From: a virus | Lineage: Duplodnaviria; Heunggongvirae; Uroviricota; Caudoviricetes | Virus record (IMG/VR): IMGVR_UViG_2671180577_000023 | Reading direction: 5' to 3' (one strand) | DNA length: 5,717 nt | Part shown: positions 98 to 5,717 of the stretch, piece by piece | Position numbering within the stretch: the first letter of the stretch is position 1 | Layout: each line of letters starts with the position of its first letter | Notes under the pieces: generated by a model | What the model was told of the DNA's origin: nothing | The model's input: the letters and a program-made list of their open reading frames with translations, nothing else | Database searches by the model: none | Made by a program: the position numbers and the translations under genes

Positions 98-151
98 CCT
101 GTTTACCTCTTTCTCAGGAAGTTTAGTCTCCAGGATTCCCGGGGCGGTTCA
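1..151 (-). mobile_element. Left-hand partial IS3-family insertion sequence (IS629/IS1203-like): terminal inverted repeat tip at 151, element body continues left of the window
   Basis: Minus strand from 151 reads TGAACCGCCCCGGGAATCCTGGAGACTAAACTTCC, then AGGA RBS and an ATG at 97-95 opening an ORF that translates [32 protein letters not shown], a recalled IS3-family OrfA N-terminus. The same 14-nt tip TGAACCGCCCCGGG recurs at 5613 on the plus strand. Confidence 0.8.
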
Positions 152-266
152 GTGGGAGCGAGTCTGCGCCGCGCTGCGGGAGCTGAACAAGCACCGGGAT
201 ATTGTTCGACAGATTGTCGATTCATCCGGTCGTATTGTGTCGGAAAAGTGATTGCCGGAGGCGCTT

Positions 267-662
267 ATGGCGAAACCTTTTACACACGAACAGCGGGAAG
301 AACTGAAGGCACGAATTATCGGATTGGTACGCAAAAATGAACGCATGACGATATCGCAACTGGAGAGAGCGACGGGAGCAGGCTGGCATTCAGTCAGACG
401 TTGCCTTGTGGATGTACTGGCTTGTGGCGATTTATACATGTCCGGTAAATACGGTGTTTTTGCATCAGAACAGGTGTATCGCGTATGGCGTAAGACACCG
501 GAGAAAACAACTGACCAGACATTGATTCGAAAGTTACCAGACGGAGAAATTCGCCGCTACGATAGACGCCTGAACATAATCTGTCGCGAGTGCCGGAATA
601 GTGAAGTTATGCAGCGCGTGCTGGCTTTCTATCAGGGGAATTTTCAGGAGGCGGTACTGTGA
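267..662 (+). CDS. Hypothetical prophage protein, possible winged-helix DNA-binding protein (131 aa)
   Basis: ORF-track frame 252..662; the ATG at 267 is preferred because GGAGG sits 5 nt upstream. Stop TGA overlaps the GTG at 659 of the next ORF. Segment MTISQLERATGAGWHSVRRCL looks HTH-like. No family recognised. Confidence 0.6.
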   Translation: MAKPFTHEQREELKARIIGLVRKNERMTISQLERATGAGWHSVRRCLVDVLACGDLYMSGKYGVFASEQVYRVWRKTPEKTTDQTLIRKLPDGEIRRYDRRLNIICRECRNSEVMQRVLAFYQGNFQEAVL

Positions 663-718
663 GTAAATTAGCTATCAGGCTTCAATTGTCGCTGGCATTC
701 GCATCAAAGGAGAATGAG

Positions 719-1303
719 ATGACCACTTTTACAAAAGAGCAGTTAATCAGTCATGTTAGTGAAAATGTAAAGGCGATGAAATTTGCAGTAAAACAGACAG
801 CATTCAAAAATTCTCTCGAGGCAATTGAGTTGGATTTAGCACTGGCCCTTGTTGCTCAGGCTTCGCTGGAAGCAGAGCCCGTGCTTTATATGAATCGATT
901 TACCGGAAAGACATTCTCACTGGAAGAGCAACCCGGTGCTGATAAGGAACCGGAAATATACGTGCCGCTATATGCTGCCCCGCCAGACAGCGCCGCCATG
1001 CTTCAGGCTGGAAACTTTCGGGAAAAGAAGGGTTCGTCAACCAATAATTTTCGGGAAATCTCGGAAACGTCAACCAACCATCCGGTAACTCTGGATGGTT
1101 GGATAAGCTGTAGTGAGCGAATGCCGGATGACGGTCAGCACGTAATTATTTTATGTGATGGCGCATTCGTTCTTTATGCGCAATATCGAGACGGTGAGTT
1201 TTTTGATGTAGTCCGTGATGGTGATGAATTTTTCGAAACACAGAGCCGCAATGTAACCGACTGGATGCCGCTACCAGAACCGCCGCAGGAGGTGCGCCAA
1301 TGA
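719..1303 (+). CDS. Phage protein with C-terminal DUF551-like domain (194 aa from ATG 719; alternative GTG start at 659 gives 214 aa)
   Basis: ORF-track 659..1303. ATG at 719 is preceded by AAGGAG with 6-nt spacing. C-terminus WISCSERMPDDGQHVIILCDG...VTDWMPLPEPP follows the recalled DUF551 pattern common in lambdoid prophages. Confidence 0.7.
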   Translation: MTTFTKEQLISHVSENVKAMKFAVKQTAFKNSLEAIELDLALALVAQASLEAEPVLYMNRFTGKTFSLEEQPGADKEPEIYVPLYAAPPDSAAMLQAGNFREKKGSSTNNFREISETSTNHPVTLDGWISCSERMPDDGQHVIILCDGAFVLYAQYRDGEFFDVVRDGDEFFETQSRNVTDWMPLPEPPQEVRQ

Positions 1304-1383
1304 ACTGGCCTGAAGCATTTGCAATTACAGGCGTTGCTATGGCTATCACCTTTTTAGTATATGTTATTTGTCGGTGGGGGTAA
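1300..1383 (+). CDS. Small hydrophobic peptide, 27 aa (MNWPEAFAITGVAMAITFLVYVICRWG), predicted single transmembrane helix
   Basis: ATG at 1300 overlaps the TGA stop of the DUF551 gene (ATGA); AGGAGG lies 7 nt upstream. Not in the ORF track because it is under the size cutoff. Confidence 0.4.
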   Translation: MNWPEAFAITGVAMAITFLVYVICRWG

Positions 1384-1418
1384 AAACGTTCGCCGGGATT
1401 AACACCAAAGGAGGGAAT

Positions 1419-1523
1419 ATGTCGGATGATATATCACTGGCAATGGAAGGTGCGCTGGCTGTTATTGCTGTTGTGGGCGTTTACTGCCTGGTTGTGTTTT
1501 TGATGGATCGACTAGGGAACTGA
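1419..1523 (+). CDS. Small hydrophobic peptide, 34 aa (MSDDISLAMEGALAVIAVVGVYCLVVFLMDRLGN), predicted single transmembrane helix
   Basis: ATG at 1419 preceded by AAGGAGGG (1408-1415). Hydrophobic core flanked by charged residues. Not in the ORF track because it is under the size cutoff. Confidence 0.45.
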   Translation: MSDDISLAMEGALAVIAVVGVYCLVVFLMDRLGN

Positions 1524-1565
1524 ATTCATTACGATATGGGAATTCCCATATCGGGTAAAAACGGT

Positions 1566-1593
1566 TTGCGGTAAAGCGAGAGTTAAGTAGAAT
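1566..1593 (+). promoter_or_regulatory. Putative sigma70 promoter for the hok-like toxin mRNA (TTGCGG, 16 nt, TAGAAT)
   Basis: Hexamers read directly; position is consistent with a ~400-nt hok-type mRNA ending at the terminator near 2014. Confidence 0.3.
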
Positions 1594-1768
1594 TGCTGCG
1601 GGTGCTTGAGGCTGTCTGCCTCGGGCATGCCACCGTAAGGCAGACAGAGAAAAGCCCCAGTTAACATTACGCGTCCTGCAAGACGCCTAACATTAATCTG
1701 AGGCCAATTTCATGCTAGACACATGTAGGTTAGCCTCTTACGCGCCGAAAGGCAAGGAGAAGCAGGCT

Positions 1769-1924
1769 ATGAAGCAGCAAAAGGCGATGTTAGTCGCCCT
1801 GATCGTCATCTGTATTACCGTCGTAGTGACGGCACTGGTAACGAGGAAAGACCTCTGCGAGGTACGAATCCGAACCGGTCAGACGGAGGTTGCTGTCTTC
1901 ACAGCTTACGAACCTGAGGAGTAA
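1769..1924 (+). CDS. Hok/Gef-family type I toxin (51 aa, small membrane-active peptide)
   Basis: MKQQKAMLVALIVICITVVVTALVTRKDLCEVRIRTGQTEVAVFTAYEPEE has the Hok signature: N-terminal transmembrane helix then TRK.LCE.R...G..EVAAF.AYE. AAGGAG sits 9 nt upstream of the ATG. The ORF track extends the same frame to an ATG at 1712 (mok-like leader frame). Confidence 0.85.
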   Translation: MKQQKAMLVALIVICITVVVTALVTRKDLCEVRIRTGQTEVAVFTAYEPEE

Positions 1925-1992
1925 GAGACCAGGCGAGGGAGAAATCCCTCGCCACCTCTGATGTGTCAGGCATCCTCAACGCACCCGCACTT

Positions 1993-2014
1993 AACCCGCT
2001 TCGGCGGGTTTTTT
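1993..2014 (+). terminator. Rho-independent terminator ending the hok-like mRNA
   Basis: CCCGC-TTCG-GCGGG hairpin followed by TTTTTT. It is preceded at 1932-1953 by a 9-bp stem with GAAA loop (GGCGAGGGA gaaa TCCCTCGCC). Confidence 0.7.
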
Positions 2015-2133
2015 CACTTACTGTGGTTGTGAATACGATTGGTATTAGGCTATGCTAACAACATTAGCCTGACTAATTTTGTATTGACTTGATTTTTGTT
2101 AAAGAACAGGACGGAGAAGTAAGGGTACACCCA

Positions 2134-2313
2134 ATGAGCTACGCACTAAAAAAACACCCGCGATTGACTATTCCCCCTCGCGATAAAAGCGTTGTGGCAG
2201 CTCCGCGCCCGGCTATCGATGAAAATTGCACTCATCGTGAGCAGGTGAAAAATGCTTTCGATTTCGGTTTTTCTCGTTACGAGAAGGCAATGGAAGAACT
2301 TTCAAAAGTGTAA
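2134..2313 (+). CDS. Small protein (60 aa) directly upstream of the Doc-family gene; candidate antitoxin, not Phd-like
   Basis: ATG at 2134 with AAGGG 8 nt upstream; stop at 2311-2313 lies 18 nt before the Doc-like start. ORF-track frame 2089..2313 begins at a TTG. Sequence MSYALKKHPRLTIPPRDKSVVAAPRPAIDENCTHREQVKNAFDFGFSRYEKAMEELSKV shows no resemblance to Phd/YefM. Confidence 0.5.
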   Translation: MSYALKKHPRLTIPPRDKSVVAAPRPAIDENCTHREQVKNAFDFGFSRYEKAMEELSKV

Positions 2314-2331
2314 TGATGGGTATTGTGCTCT

Positions 2332-2817
2332 ATGGCTGAGATTGTTGAAGGAGTGCACTACCTTTCGTTTGATGATCTTACCGAAATTAATCGCCTTTTA
2401 ATTGAGCTTCAAACACCAGATGAACCTGTTAGTGTGCTGAGTGTTGATAATTTAAGTTCTTCTCAGTCTCGTCCCAGCATGGTTCGATGGTATGAACAGA
2501 CTAATGACATGTTTGTACTGGCATCAGTATTGATTGAAAGTCTGATTCAGAATCATCCATTTGCTAATGCAAACAAACGAACAGCTATGATGGCTGGTTA
2601 TGTCTTCTTGTTGTTGAATGGCTATGAGTTAACAGCACCAGGCGATGAAATCGTGGAAATGGCAGAGGGACTGGCCTGCAAAACCTATACTCGAGAAGAT
2701 CTCGAGAACTGGTTGTGTTATTGGTCTCGTGCGTATGACAGCCGGGAATTATGTAAAACAGGCGCAACTATTGTTTTGTATGAAACTATCAAGCTTAAAA
2801 TAGAACAGCAAAACTAA
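2332..2817 (+). CDS. Doc (death-on-curing) / Fic-fold family toxin, 161 aa
   Basis: Contains HPFANANKRTA, which fits the Doc motif H-x-F-x-(D/N)-(A/G)-N-K-R exactly. ORF-track frame 2323..2817 starts at TTG; the first ATG is at 2332. Confidence 0.8.
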   Translation: MAEIVEGVHYLSFDDLTEINRLLIELQTPDEPVSVLSVDNLSSSQSRPSMVRWYEQTNDMFVLASVLIESLIQNHPFANANKRTAMMAGYVFLLLNGYELTAPGDEIVEMAEGLACKTYTREDLENWLCYWSRAYDSRELCKTGATIVLYETIKLKIEQQN

Positions 2818-2833
2818 AGGTGCTTCTAATGAA

Positions 2834-2858
2834 AACCCGCTTCGGCGGGTTTTGTTGT
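2834..2858. terminator. Bidirectional intrinsic terminator between the convergent Doc-like and HigA-like genes
   Basis: CCCGC-TTCG-GCGGG hairpin (2836-2849) with TTTTGTTGT on the plus side and a T-run on the minus side. The hairpin and flanks (AACCCGCTTCGGCGGGTTTT) are identical to the hok terminator at 1993-2012. Confidence 0.6.
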
Positions 2859-2867
2859 ATTGGAGTA

Positions 2868-3185
2868 TCATGATATTACCTGGATCCCGTTTTTCTCTAC
2901 GACTGAAAGAAGGCGAAGAGCGGCACCTCCCGGCCGTTTTACACCACGTTCCCAGTCTGATATCAGGTTTTTACTGACGTTGAGGTATCTGGCAAAAACA
3001 GGTTGAGACAGATGCTCTCGTTCGCGCAGTGCACGGATCCTTTCCGGAGACATTACCGGCGCTGGCTGGAGACAAGTTTCATCGAATTCTCGCATAGTCT
3101 GTTTCGTTACTGCGCCGATATCATGAAGCGATTCCATCATTTCATGTACGGATGCAAGCGCATCACTGCGGTAATTTTTACTCAT
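2868..3185 (-). CDS. HigA-like antitoxin, XRE-type helix-turn-helix (COG2944-like), 105 aa
   Basis: ORF-track 2868..3185. C-terminal SPERIRALREREHLSQPVFARYLNVSKNLISDWERGVKRPGGAALRLL matches the recalled HTH antitoxin family partnered with RelE/ParE-like toxins. Its ATG (3185-3183) overlaps the stop of the upstream toxin frame (ATGAGTAA), the toxin-first order typical of HigBA. Confidence 0.8.
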   Translation of the reverse strand: MSKNYRSDALASVHEMMESLHDIGAVTKQTMREFDETCLQPAPVMSPERIRALREREHLSQPVFARYLNVSKNLISDWERGVKRPGGAALRLLSVVEKNGIQVIS

Positions 3186-3548
3186 TGGGTACCTCCGTAA
3201 ACTGACCCTGTAGAATCAGTTGTGCCAGTTGTTCATCTGTTAGATTGAGTACGTGAGGAGCCGCCTTCCGAAATGCACTTTCCGCAGTAGCGGTTATATT
3301 TTCACGTTCATTTTTTGCGTATGCATATACGAAAAAGGCCCTTGTGCCGACGCGATAGAAAATGATTGTGCGATAACCGCCAGATTTGCCGCCACCGACT
3401 CGTGGCAGACGTTGCTTGATAACGCCGTTACCCAGGTTTGCTGAGATAAGCCCGTTATCAGCCTGTTTAACAATTTCGCGCAGTGATTGGTCGGATATTT
3501 TGTTTTGCGTGCAAATCGCTCAAACCAGGCGTTTTTAAAAATGCGCAT
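3178..3548 (-). pseudogene. RelE/ParE-superfamily (HigB-like) toxin gene, disrupted by a frameshift after codon ~16
   Basis: From ATG 3548-3546 the frame reads MRIFKNAWFERFARK, the conserved N-terminus of this family, then runs into unrelated sequence (ORF-track 3294..3611). The rest of the toxin (KISDQSLREIVKQADNGLISANLGNGVIKQRLPRVGGGKSGGYRTIIFYRVGTRAFFVYAYAKNERENITATAESAFRKAAPHVLNLTDEQLAQLILQGQFTEVPNE) is intact in another frame with no start codon of its own. The break lies in the A-rich tract AAAACAAAATAT (about 3495-3506). Confidence 0.7.
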
Positions 3549-3570
3549 TTTTTGTTCCGTTATTAATGTA

Positions 3571-3585
3571 TAACACATAGTGTTA
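3571..3585. promoter_or_regulatory. Perfect inverted repeat TAACAC-ata-GTGTTA upstream of the higB-like start; candidate operator for the HigA-like repressor
   Basis: 6-bp arms with 3-bp spacer read directly; sits about 25 bp upstream of the toxin ATG in its promoter region. Confidence 0.35.
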
Positions 3586-3615
3586 CATTGCGTAGGGATC
3601 TGCAATGCCATCAGT

Positions 3616-3645
3616 TTGACAACGTCGCGTGTTCGGGGCTATATT
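3616..3645 (+). promoter_or_regulatory. Near-consensus sigma70 promoter (TTGACA, 18 nt, TATATT) driving the leader, c4-like RNA and ORF6N operon
   Basis: Hexamers read directly; the same architecture (TTGACG, 18 nt, TATATT) recurs at 5201-5230 upstream of the paralogous module. Confidence 0.6.
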
Positions 3646-3705
3646 CCTCACGCGCCAGCAAAACCTGGCGTCGGGATTAGCACCCCGGATATCGAAACGG
3701 TGCAT

Positions 3706-3726
3706 AACCGCGCTGGCGGTTTTTTT
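3706..3726 (+). terminator. Terminator-like hairpin plus T7 run in the leader, between target sites and the c4-like RNA (possible attenuator)
   Basis: AACCGC-GCTG-GCGGTT followed by TTTTTTT. The upstream CGCCAG (3653-3658) can pair with either CTGGCG copy (3665-3670 or 3713-3718), giving alternative folds. Confidence 0.45.
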
Positions 3727-3758
3727 ATGCGCTAAGCACAGTCACATTCGCGATTTAT

Positions 3759-3835
3759 GGCGGGCTGTGTGGGGGAGCCGAAAGGCTCGCCGGATGTTTC
3801 GACCGGTAGTGCTAACCCCGCACAGTTCGCCACCA
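3759..3835 (+). ncRNA. Candidate c4-like antisense regulatory RNA (~77 nt) upstream of the ORF6N gene
   Basis: A 16-bp closing helix (3759-3774 with 3816-3831) encloses a GNRA hairpin (GAGCC-GAAA-GGCTC) and two loops. Loop GTTTCGA (3796-3802) is complementary to TCGAAAC at 3692-3698 and 3873-3879; loop GTGCTAA (3809-3815) is complementary to TTAGCAC at 3677-3683 and 3842-3848. A 3-prime ACCA tail follows. The second target pair lies just upstream of the ORF6N RBS. Confidence 0.5.
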
Positions 3836-3890
3836 CGATGATTAGCACCTGACGGTGGCGAGGTAAAAATTATCGAAACGCGAGGTCATT

Positions 3891-4556
3891 ATGGCTGTTC
3901 AAATTTCTGTCGAAAACCTTTCCCCTGTTACCTATAACCAGATCCCCGTAATTACTACTGAACTGTTGGCTCACCTTTACGGAACAAAAATCAAAAACAT
4001 TTCTGATAACTTTCTGAACAACACGACGCGATTCATGCCCGGAAAGCATTACTTTAAAATTGAAAAAAACGAATTACGCGAGTTTAAGAACAGACCCGAA
4101 ACAATCGGGTTAGTTGGTAAAAATGCCCGCTCCCTCATCCTCTGGACAGAACGCGGCGCAGCCCGTCACGCAAAAATGCTCGAAACCGATCGGGCGTGGG
4201 AGGTATTCGAAAAACTGGAAGACTGCTATTTCAGCCAGGGAAAAACAGCACCAACCGAACAGCAGCCGCAGATTCAGCCACAATTCACAGCCGAAGAAAT
4301 CATCCTCCTTTGCTACATGCAGCTCTGGATGGAAAAAGCCCAGGACATCAGCAAACACCTGTATCCCATTATGAAAGAGCTGAACTCCTCATACACGAAC
4401 AAGCTGTATGACATTGCGTTTGAGACCATCTACATGGTGACGAAGAACAGAGACGCGCTACTGAGGGAGGTAACACGTCTCGACATGTCAAGTTCCGTTA
4501 TCCAGCGGGCCATGCCAATGCTGAAAAGCCTGCGGGCAAGACAATTTGAATTCTGA
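3891..4556 (+). CDS. Antirepressor-like protein with N-terminal ORF6N/KilA-N-type domain, 221 aa
   Basis: ORF-track 3891..4556; GAGG lies 5 nt upstream of the ATG. N-terminus MAVQISVENLSPVTYNQIPVITTELLAHLYGT...FMPGKHYFKIEKNELREF matches the recalled ORF6N pattern of phage antirepressors. Confidence 0.75.
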   Translation: MAVQISVENLSPVTYNQIPVITTELLAHLYGTKIKNISDNFLNNTTRFMPGKHYFKIEKNELREFKNRPETIGLVGKNARSLILWTERGAARHAKMLETDRAWEVFEKLEDCYFSQGKTAPTEQQPQIQPQFTAEEIILLCYMQLWMEKAQDISKHLYPIMKELNSSYTNKLYDIAFETIYMVTKNRDALLREVTRLDMSSSVIQRAMPMLKSLRARQFEF

Positions 4557-4560
4557 AACT

Positions 4561-4583
4561 AAAGGAGCTTCGGCTCCTTTTTT
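4561..4583 (+). terminator. Rho-independent terminator after the ORF6N gene
   Basis: GGAGC-TTCG-GCTCC hairpin followed by TTTTTT. Coordinates are approximate to within a base. Confidence 0.7.
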
Positions 4584-4610
4584 GTTGGGAAAATCCAGTG
4601 AGAGGGAATA

Positions 4611-5021
4611 ATGAACCAGACTATCTTCCTCCGAAGTAAGCAGCAGCAACAATTCGCCATTAACGCCATCCTTGCAACAACTCTCGATAAAGACAAACCC
4701 GTTACGATCCGCATCACCGATTACAAGCGGAATCTCGATCAAAATGCCAAATTTCACGCGATGGTCGCTGATATCTCCCGACAGGTTCAGTGGTGCGGCA
4801 GATGGCTAAAACCAGAACAGTGGAAAGTTTTGTTAATCAGCGGTCATGCCGTGGCGACAAAACAGGAAGCTGATGTTTTGCCTGGTCTTGAAGGTGAATA
4901 CGTCAATATCCGCGAAAGCAGTGCGCAGATGAGCGTGAAGCGTATGGCAAGCCTGATTGAGTACACAACTTCCTGGGCTGTGGAGCAGGGTGTCAGATTT
5001 ACCGACAGGAGGTATGAATGA
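4611..5021 (+). CDS. ninB: NinB-family protein (lambda NinB-like single-strand DNA-binding recombination protein), 136 aa
   Basis: ORF-track 4611..5021. Segment [33 protein letters not shown] aligns with the recalled lambda NinB core RSLDQNRKLWACLGDVSRQVEWHGRWLDAESWK. GAGGG RBS upstream. Confidence 0.8.
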
Positions 5022-5200
5022 GACGACAGCGACGAAGCATTACCGATATAGTCTGTGAAAACTGCAATTACCTTCCAACGAAACGTTCCAGAAATAAACC
5101 CAGGCCAATCCCAAAAGAATCTGACGTTAAAGCCTTCAATTACACGGCTCACCTGTGGGATATCCGGTGGCTAAGACATCGTGCGAGGAAAACAAGGTGA
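5018..5200 (+). CDS. ninE: NinE-family protein, 60 aa
   Basis: ORF-track 5018..5200. Start overlaps the ninB stop (ATGA). [60 protein letters not shown] matches the recalled lambda NinE sequence closely. Confidence 0.75.
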
Positions 5201-5230
5201 TTGACGTGATGATTTATTCGGGGCTATATT
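5201..5230 (+). promoter_or_regulatory. Sigma70 promoter (TTGACG, 18 nt, TATATT) of the second leader / c4-like / ORF6N module
   Basis: Same spacing and -10 as the promoter at 3616-3645. The downstream 40 nt (TTCCTCACGCGCCAGCAAAAYCTGGCGTCGGGATT) are nearly identical between modules. Confidence 0.55.
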
Positions 5231-5291
5231 CCTCACGCGCCAGCAAAATCTGGCGTCGGGATTGGCGTCCTGGATAGAGACCGCGACAGAT

Positions 5292-5314
5292 ACACGCCGC
5301 GAGCGTGTTTTTTA
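5292..5314 (+). terminator. Terminator-like hairpin plus T-run in the second leader (counterpart of 3706-3726)
   Basis: ACACGC-CGCGA-GCGTGT followed by TTTTTT. Sequence differs from module A but structure and position are conserved. Confidence 0.5.
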
Positions 5315-5344
5315 TTGTCGTATGCACGCGCACATCTGAATTAT

Positions 5345-5420
5345 GGTGGGCTGTGTGGGGGCGGAGAGATCCGCGCCGGTCGGTTTCCCGGTTACGCCAA
5401 CCCTGCACAGTTCACCACCA
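5345..5420 (+). ncRNA. Second candidate c4-like antisense RNA (~76 nt), diverged paralogue of 3759-3835
   Basis: Same architecture: 16-bp closing helix (5345-5360 with 5401-5416), GNRA hairpin GCGGA-GAGA-TCCGC, two recognition loops, ACCA tail. Loop ACGCCAA (5394-5400) is complementary to TTGGCGT at 5262-5268 and 5426-5432; loop GGTTTC is complementary to GAAACC near the RBS (5453-5458). Confidence 0.5.
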
Positions 5421-5474
5421 GACGATTGGCGTCGTCGGTGGTGAGTTATTAAGAAACCACTCGAGGGCGTCATT

Positions 5475-5615
5475 ATGACAACTCAAATCTCTGTTGAAAC
5501 ACTCTCCACGATTACTTACAAGCAGATCCCCGTTATCACTACCGAACTTTTGGCGCACCTTTACGGCACAGAAGCTATTCGTATTCGCCAGAATCACCAC
5601 GAAAACAAAGGTTGA
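5475..5615 (+). pseudogene. Second ORF6N antirepressor-like gene, truncated after codon 46 by the IS insertion
   Basis: GAGGG RBS then ATG at 5475; MTTQISVETLSTITYKQIPVITTELLAHLYGTEAIRIRQNHHENKG parallels the first 46 residues of the 3891..4556 protein. The frame stops at TGA 5613-5615, which is the first three bases of the IS terminal repeat. Confidence 0.75.
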
Positions 5616-5717
5616 ACCGCCCCGGGTTTCCTGGAGAGTGTTTTATCTGTGAACTCAGGCTGCCAGATCATCGTTTCCGATGGAAGCATAATAAGCTTTT
5701 TCTGCTTCTGCCGGAGG
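5613..5717 (-). mobile_element. Right-hand partial IS3-family insertion sequence (IS629/IS1203-like): terminal repeat at 5613, body continues past the window end
   Basis: Plus strand from 5613 reads TGAACCGCCCCGGGTTTCCTGGAGAGTG, sharing its first 14 nt with the repeat at 151 and diverging after, as expected for the opposite end of the same IS. Same orientation as the left copy. Confidence 0.8.
5655..5717 (-). CDS. IS3-family transposase OrfB, C-terminal 20 codons only (continues beyond window end)
   Basis: Minus-strand frame reads PPAEAEKAYYASIGNDDLAA then TGA (plus 5655-5657), ending about 40 nt inside the terminal repeat, the usual layout for an IS3-family OrfB. Confidence 0.55.
   Translation of the reverse strand, partial: PPAEAEKAYYASIGNDDLAA

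Follow-up and report, generated by a model that had tools for sequence, protein, structure and literature searches.

This study concerns a small toxin locus at positions 1560-2014 of a 5,717-nucleotide (nt) stretch of DNA, the viral record IMGVR_UViG_2671180577_000023, which is referred to throughout as the window. The gene at its centre, hok (1769-1924, plus strand), encodes a peptide of 51 amino acids (aa) of the Hok/Gef family. Residues 6-47 match Pfam PF01848 (HOK_GEF) with an E value of 5.6e-24 and 83.9 bits against a cut-off of 22, and the RefSeq record of Escherichia coli ML35 names the identical coding sequence "type I toxin-antitoxin system toxin HokD". The leader (1600-1774, plus strand) matches the Rfam family "sok" (RF01794) from end to end, scoring 116.9 bits where the gathering score is 59, with an E value of 5.3e-27. 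Since this match lies on the plus strand, the model describes the leader of the hok-sense mRNA, from the tac box through the hok start, and the antisense RNA Sok is the complement of its middle part. Annotation pipelines that use RF01794 ("sok antitoxin") could put "sok" on the wrong strand.

On sequence comparison and RNA folding, we read the locus as an intact type I toxin-antitoxin module belonging to the hok/sok family, of the hokD/hokW type of E. coli lambdoid prophages, and put the probability of this reading, including the mechanism proposed below, at about 0.9. The locus looks complete and is apparently functional. It is an ordinary member of its family; the family, the mechanism, the subfamily and the in-frame mok are all already documented. 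Its features far exceed what chance would produce, be it in the RF01794 match (E 5.3e-27), the fold of the full-length mRNA (z -8.8) or the recurrence in thousands of genomes. An earlier note, made from the sequence alone, had proposed a complete hok-like type I toxin locus here, and the proposal holds: the Pfam and Rfam matches agree with it, and all the features it listed lie where it had put them.

A search of 5,426 complete E. coli genomes with the 455-base-pair (bp) locus found 10,988 related places in 4,721 genomes (median 2 per genome, maximum 10); in 3,953 of them a copy spans 80% of the query or more. Strains ML35 and NMBU-W12E19 have the exact sequence, and the identity is 99.6% in O104:H4 strains. 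In the RefSeq record with the identical sequence only the 51-aa coding sequence (hokD) is annotated, with neither a sok RNA nor mok listed. The practical value of the present analysis is therefore one of annotation: the coordinates given below are transferable to thousands of E. coli genomes with an intact copy.

Predicted transcripts, regulatory boxes and antisense RNA

The hok promoter is assigned to 1566-1593 (plus strand), with a -35-like TTGCGG (1566-1571), a 16-nt spacer and a -10 TAGAAT (1588-1593). The -10 lies six bases 5´ of the conserved GGGTGC that marks the mRNA 5´ end at 1600, aligns at the same spacing with the TATAAT of hokC and the plasmid loci, and belongs to a promoter identical in hokW of the Stx2 prophage Sp5. 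A sigma-70 consensus scan of 1400-2150 flagged neither this promoter nor that of sok, and both are consequently assigned by positional homology, not by consensus strength. The full-length hok (mok-hok) mRNA of about 413 nt (1600-2014, plus strand) has its 5´ end placed by alignment to hokC, hokB and plasmid loci and by the start of the RF01794 match. It ends in an intrinsic terminator (1993-2014, plus strand; AACCCGC-TTCG-GCGGGTT and a T-run, with the stem at 1993-2010) that is not common to Sp5 hokW. This agrees with the mRNA of ~400 nt between a promoter and a terminator that had been proposed, the start at 1600 being an alignment-based placement.

Along the plus strand, the mRNA begins with the translational activator box tac (GGGUGCUUGAGG, 1600-1611), recognised from its place at the 5´ end and its alternative pairings in the folds. 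It is followed by a leader stem-loop (1612-1647) and by the upstream complementary box ucb, an anti-Shine-Dalgarno element (AAGCCCC, 1652-1658) recognised from the folds and from family-wide pairing. The alignment shows conservation of the mok Shine-Dalgarno (SD) sequence GAGGC (1700-1704), which lies 8 nt 5´ of the ATG, and the mok open reading frame (ORF) of 70 codons (1712-1924) is in frame with hok and has a common stop with it. The hok SD, AGGAG, lies at 1755-1759. For comparison, 79 loci were collected, one genome per species, and reduced to 64 distinct transcript regions; the leaders of 57 were aligned, and 34 loci were used for the 3´ pairing columns. The CAAGGA of the hok SD is invariant across the 57 leaders. 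Downstream of hok there is a 9-bp stem-loop with a GAAA loop (1932-1953; -19.7 to -20.7 kcal/mol, z -5.1) and, at 1974-1986, the fold-back inhibitory box fbi (CCUCAACGCACCC), which forms 12 pairs with tac. Both stem-loops had been picked out in the earlier note and are recovered by folding, the leader one as 10 + 3 bp.

The antisense partner, which the earlier note regarded as not yet located, can be placed by homology. The window was aligned with K-12 hokC, hokB and the plasmid loci, and the annotated ends of K-12 SokC and SokB were transferred through this alignment. The 5´ end of SokC falls on 1720 and that of SokB on 1719, and the 3´ ends of both fall on 1644. This puts the candidate Sok, of about 71 nt, at 1720 to 1650 on the minus strand (3´ end 1644-1650), within the interval of about 1650-1740 where an antisense RNA had been expected. 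The putative sok promoter (1727-1755, minus strand) consists of a -35 TTGCCT (1755-1750), a 17-nt spacer and a -10 TAACCT (1732-1727), and its hexamers line up with the sok promoters of the family loci in the alignment. Position 1720 is 7 nt downstream of TAACCT, the distance expected of a transcription start. The candidate overlies the mok SD and the mok ATG at 1712. The predicted fold of the minus-strand RNA from 1720 to 1650 (-31.3 kcal/mol, z -5.4) leaves 15 nt single-stranded at the 5´ end, followed by a long hairpin and then a U-rich tail. As far as sequence can tell, the locus has a cis-encoded Sok that is transcribed from a promoter of its own, has an unpaired 5´ tail and ends in a terminator hairpin.

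A predicted folding switch and its conservation

The folding of this copy reproduces, in prediction, the three states published for R1 mRNA: metastable, closed and open (PMC9841398). In the nascent transcript, 1600-1630 folds into a hairpin that sequesters tac (1602-1612 paired with 1618-1628, spanning 1602-1628 on the plus strand; -19.9 kcal/mol, z -5.05), and this predicted metastable hairpin is replaced by the tac-ucb pairing and the leader stem once the transcript reaches 1662. The full-length mRNA (1600-2014) folds at -179.3 kcal/mol, with a z-score of -8.8 against 100 shuffles. In this fold 1600-1611 pairs with 1974-1986, the long-range 5´/3´ pairing that the earlier note had suggested looking for with RNAfold, and ucb pairs with the mok SD. 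The tac-fbi duplex has 12 pairs and one bulged C (-21.1 kcal/mol) and is present in the minimum-free-energy structure. In the 3´-trimmed mRNA (1600-1970), tac pairs instead with ucb at 1652-1658, and the Sok-target (sokT) hairpin forms (1700-1737, plus strand). In this hairpin the mok SD is paired with dcb (1733-1737), so that the SD has alternative partners, ucb in the full-length form and dcb in the trimmed form. Among the long folds the target hairpin appears in the trimmed mRNA only; folded locally, it reaches -13.6 kcal/mol (z -2.8). The leader stem at 1612-1647 is present in the full-length, trimmed and local folds alike.

A YUNR (U-turn) motif in the target loop, complementary to the 5´ tail of Sok, is a feature of the hok/sok family described for R1. 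Here the 7-nt loop CUAGACA (1715-1721) opens with such a motif, CUAG. The 3´ stem-loop at 1932-1953 is probably the protective 3´ end of the processed mRNA, by analogy with the equivalent stem of R1, which protects the truncated mRNA (PMC9841398).

The same pairings are maintained across the family. Among the 64 loci tac is conserved in five sequence classes. The 5´ box pairs with its own 3´ untranslated region (UTR) at -20.0 kcal/mol, compared with -15.2 for UTRs of other classes and -13.4 for shuffled UTRs, and its own UTR is the better partner in 59/64 loci. Position 4 of tac and its fbi partner are U-A in 18 loci and C-G in 16 and never unpaired, and position 12 and its partner are G-C in 15 loci and A-U in 5. 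A column-based count of the distal half of the tac-fbi duplex was set aside in favour of this alignment-free comparison of own and other UTRs: the register is ambiguous between classes (bulge or mismatch), which makes pairs 8-10 look poorly paired.

Over the 57 leaders, the open structure is paired in 73.1% of cells, against 37-49% in slid controls. Its tac-ucb helix is 99.5% paired and includes one compensatory pair (UA to CG), the leader stem is 85.8% paired with 7 pairs changed on both sides, and 9 pairs are changed on both sides in the target hairpin. The ucb-mok SD helix of the closed form is 82.9% paired family-wide. In the 3´ stem-loop (34 loci) the figure is 77.9%, with 3 covarying pairs. 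Within the subfamily, the stem differences between the window and Sp5 are compensated (1614/1645, G-C to A-U; 1936/1949, A-U to G-C in Sp5), which argues for continued selection on structure.

Relatives, proposed mechanism and alternatives

The closest well-studied relative is hokW-sokW (with mokW) of the Stx2 prophages Sp5/VT2-Sakai and 933W-like phages, with about 91% nt identity over 1560-1996. Identical in both are the promoter hexamers of hok and of sok, the boxes tac, ucb and fbi, the SD and ATG of mok and the SD of hok, and the two loci have in common the in-frame mok of 70 codons, the lambdoid prophage setting and an extra hairpin tip of ~18-19 nt in the Sok region that hokC, hokB and the plasmid loci lack. 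They differ at 6 of the first 17 positions of the Sok 5´ tail and its target, two of them in the loop (CUAGACA in the window, CUGAACA in Sp5), differences that could limit cross-talk between co-resident copies. They differ further at 7 residues of Hok (86% identity to HokW), at compensated positions of the 3´ stem-loop, and in the terminator and downstream flank, which are unrelated. The neighbour of Sp5 hokW is a ygiW/ydeI-like gene, whereas the neighbours in the window are a DUF551 gene on one side and a Doc-family toxin gene on the other.

Another close relative is hokD (relF) of the K-12 Qin prophage, whose name RefSeq also gives to the window coding sequence. Identity is 96.5% over 1755-2013, which covers the hok SD, the coding sequence, the 3´ stem-loop, fbi and the terminator. 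K-12 hokD, however, has lost everything 5´ of about 1755: the promoter, the tac and ucb boxes, the leader, sok and the start of mok. The window thus holds the complete form of K-12's truncated hokD and shows its state before the leader was lost. The hairpin tip (about 1669-1688) is found in 10 of the 57 leaders, all of the hokD/hokW type. It is GC-rich and caps a hairpin that on the sense strand is the ucb-SD hairpin and on the antisense strand that of the Sok terminator, which accounts for a Sok of 71 nt where SokB and SokC have 57-59 nt. The identities to Sp5 and K-12 hokD, the tip and the in-frame mok together place the locus in the hokD/hokW subfamily.

A further relative is hokC/mokC/sokC (gef) of K-12, with 88% Hok identity, an identical tac, and a mok in frame with hok and ending at a common stop. 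The start annotated for SokC, 9 nt into mokC, corresponds to window position 1720. The K-12 locus lacks the hairpin insertion, its SokC is 59 nt and its sok -10 is different; IS186 adjoins its 3´ end, and the tac-fbi pairing of the K-12-type copy is weak (-13.3 kcal/mol). The hok/sok (parB) system of plasmid R1 and the IncF loci has the same architecture, with tac, fbi, ucb, dcb, mok, sokT and Sok at homologous positions and the mechanism reviewed in PMC9841398. These plasmid loci differ in Hok (about 40% identity), in an out-of-frame mok (+1, with the annotation DUF5431), in a longer leader loop, in a tac of another class (GGCGCUUGAGGC) with a matching fbi, and in their plasmid context and association with post-segregational killing.

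From these comparisons a mechanism can be proposed, of which the first four steps build on sequence, folding and covariation and the last two are carried over from R1 hok/sok and Sp5 hokW-sokW. The weak promoter (-10 TAGAAT, 1588-1593) would give a stable mRNA of about 413 nt from 1600, with tac held in the local hairpin during transcription. In the finished mRNA the tac-fbi and ucb-mok SD pairings would permit neither translation nor binding of Sok. Slow trimming from the 3´ end to the stem-loop at 1932-1953 would then remove fbi, upon which tac would pair with ucb, the mok SD would be freed and the hairpin with the CUAGACA loop would form. Ribosomes starting at the mok ATG (1712) would traverse the region of the hok SD and start and so make translation of hok possible (1769-1924); with mok in frame, these ribosomes would also make an extended form of 70 aa. 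As long as it is made, the short-lived 71-nt Sok would attack the target loop through its single-stranded 5´ tail, cover the mok SD and ATG, block translation and mark the duplex for RNase III. If its synthesis stopped, by prophage induction, loss of the element or shut-off of transcription, the processed mRNA would be translated and Hok would depolarise the inner membrane. HokW is toxic and located in the inner membrane (PMC8621323). The role in a lambdoid prophage is most likely the one demonstrated for hokW-sokW, earlier lysis and release upon induction, or else stabilisation of the prophage; it is the weakest part of this account.

Several points weigh against the reading as an active module. 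An intact sequence is by itself no proof of activity, and some chromosomal hok loci were reported inactive in killing assays (PMC8621323). In the source genome the segment is flanked by two copies of an insertion sequence (IS), and its prophage context may be degraded. The differences from hokW noted above touch both Sok and Hok. The -10 of sok matches the consensus at only 3/6 positions, the consensus scan having detected neither promoter, and the sokW -10 mutated in PMC8621323 is equated with TAACCT by position only. Minimum-free-energy folds of a 400-nt RNA, moreover, are only approximate.

The foremost alternative is a locus intact in sequence and functionally silent, in which the mRNA is locked or Sok in excess and Hok never made naturally, so that the copy is a relic. 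Decay of this kind does happen, as the loss of the whole leader from K-12 hokD attests, and IS3-family elements bracket the segment and truncate neighbouring prophage genes. We nevertheless consider it unlikely: none of the regulatory boxes is damaged, each being identical to its counterpart in the functional Sp5 hokW-sokW, the stem differences from Sp5 at 1614/1645 and 1936/1949 are compensated, and 3,953 of the 5,426 genomes have kept copies of at least 80% of the locus.

A second alternative turns on the reading frame of mok. The earlier note had proposed the in-frame ATG at 1712 as a mok-like start, and with the SD GAGG 8 nt upstream and a conserved position the proposal stands. The ATG lies at -57 from the hok ATG and opens the 70-aa ORF 1712-1924; in 59/64 loci the mok start is at -56, -57 or -58. 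It had also been remarked that the leader frame is unlike that of R1. The difference is real and not unusual: mok is in frame 0 with hok in 22 of the 64 loci, in +1 in 32 and in +2 in 5, the +2 frames stopping at the hok start. In-frame examples include K-12 mokC/hokC, with its common stop codon, and mokW as annotated in Stx2 phages, and out-of-frame ones include R1-type plasmid Mok (DUF5431) and mokB. Close relatives differ in frame through 1-nt indels. Within the hokC clade, locus L023 is in frame and L024 and L025 are +2, and L019 and L020 of the hokD clade are +1. The earlier note had tied its reading to conservation of the upstream in-frame ATG among homologues; what is conserved is the position (59/64), the frame being in common with only 22/64. 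As the frame flips between close relatives while the start stays in place, the extension is not conserved as a protein, and we rejected it as such. A conserved ATG in a variable frame agrees with the view in the literature that what counts is the act of translating mok and not its product, translation up to the hok start being sufficient in R1 (PMC9841398). By sequence comparison the upstream ATG is the normal mok start, with translational coupling to hok predicted.

It is conceivable that the 70-aa, N-terminally extended Hok from 1712 is itself the product regulated by Sok, with no coupling to a separate 51-aa Hok. The frame 1712-1924 is open and includes the complete Hok domain, the layout recurs in the 22 in-frame loci, and MokW and MokC are annotated as proteins in public records. 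The frame flips around a fixed start speak against this, as do the hok SD (CAAGGA) and ATG, both invariant in all 57 leaders, the need in R1 for mok translation only up to the hok start (PMC9841398), and the toxicity of the 51-aa HokW expressed alone (PMC8621323). We hold it to be improbable. Similarly little credence can be given to a wider version in which the 70-aa Hok of in-frame loci would have an activity or localisation of its own, Sok would control the toxin isoform directly, and the six differences from sokW, in the target loop and the 5´ tail of Sok, would shield co-resident prophages from one another's antitoxins.

Five loci from Enterobacter (L072-L074, L079, L080) form a divergent Hok clade (MKRQSPIIRV...) with a recognisable tac and a well-paired fbi. 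By the rule used, none of them shows an SD-preceded mok start at the conserved place, about 60 nt 5´ of hok. This clade may use a different coupling arrangement.

The putative sok promoter had been pointed out earlier as TTGCCT, 17 nt and TAACCT, with the remark that it was not convincing. The location and hexamers were right; the doubt is answered by the sokW promoter of Sp5, whose -35 and -10 are base-for-base identical and which differs at one spacer base. For SokW, PMC8621323 describes 71 nt of complementarity to the leader, visibility on Northern blots with disappearance after mitomycin C, and an action that depends partly on RNase III and Hfq. It also describes a -10 mutation that abolishes protection from HokW, with partial restoration by sokW in trans. 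That the locus has no functional antisense RNA, the hexamers being too weak as a promoter and hok silenced by mRNA folding alone, is very improbable: the three consensus matches, the miss in the scan and the lack of a sok RNA gene in the RefSeq record of the identical sequence are set against hexamers and spacing identical to those of sokW, which is Northern-detected and whose promoter mutant is unprotected (PMC8621323), against their place at the family's sok promoter position and against the form of the RNA downstream, which has the unpaired 5´ tail, the hairpin and the U-tail that one would expect.

Surroundings of the locus and minor observations

The window is a piece of the early and nin region of a lambdoid prophage, and 151-5612 is 100.000% identical to the E. 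coli ML35 chromosome. The RefSeq genes of that stretch are DUF977, DUF551, hokD, a Doc-family toxin, an HTH (helix-turn-helix)/RelE-ParE pair, ORF6N antirepressors, NinB and NinE. The ends of the window, 1-150 and 5613-5717, are termini of IS3-family elements (IS629/IS1203-type), whose TGAACCGCCCCGGG inverted-repeat ends abut the prophage DNA and whose transposases both read on the minus strand. In ML35 the intervening 5,462 bp are found, at 100% identity, as uninterrupted prophage DNA, from which it follows that the segment is bracketed in the source genome by two IS copies of like orientation. The left copy truncates a DUF1627 gene and the right copy the second antirepressor gene (5475-5615).

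Two further toxin-antitoxin modules lie downstream. The first, immediately after hok/sok (2134-2817), has a Doc (death-on-curing)/Fic-family toxin gene at 2323-2817 (Pfam Fic, E 3e-11); the small ORF in front of it, annotated in ML35 at 2134-2313, is without a Pfam match and presumably encodes the antitoxin. The second (2868-3611, minus strand) consists of an HTH antitoxin (2868-3185) and a RelE/ParE-family toxin given in RefSeq as 3178-3516. This toxin has a non-ATG first codon (I), and a typical N-terminus, MRIFKNAWFERFARK, lies upstream in another frame (ORF 3294-3611), so that the gene looks frameshifted near 3505-3520. Beyond it are two tandem P1-immI-like modules, 3639-3837 with 3891-4556 and 5224-5422 with 5475-5615, with a mutual identity of about 75%. 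In both, c4-a1b1 targets, an isrK-like RNA and a C4 antisense RNA exceed the gathering scores of Rfam, and an ORF6N antirepressor gene comes next.

Immediately 5´ of the hok promoter are two very small hydrophobic ORFs, 1300-1383 (27 aa), which overlaps the DUF551 stop codon (ATGA), and 1419-1523 (34 aa), a hypothetical protein in ML35. A near-identical terminator, AACCCGCTTCGGCGGGTTTT, occurs after hok (1993-2014) and after the Doc-family toxin gene (about 2832-2857), the hok-side copy being absent from the Sp5 hokW locus. Sub-threshold Rfam matches over the hok 3´ UTR (isrK, 31 bits with a gathering score of 50; rsmX, 25 bits with 56) were rejected as resemblance to the stem-loop and terminator; the recurring sequence at about 2832-2857 draws similarly weak matches, and the rsmX, isrK and istR matches at both sites reflect the repeat.

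Within hok, the codon for Tyr47 (1907-1910) reads UAC followed by G, the motif for A-to-I editing by TadA. The equivalent position of hokD shows low-level editing (6%) that changes Tyr to Cys (PMC12214031). A tRNA-Arg-like hairpin around this UACG was considered as the editing substrate and discarded, the local fold being no better than that of shuffled sequences (z 0.23).

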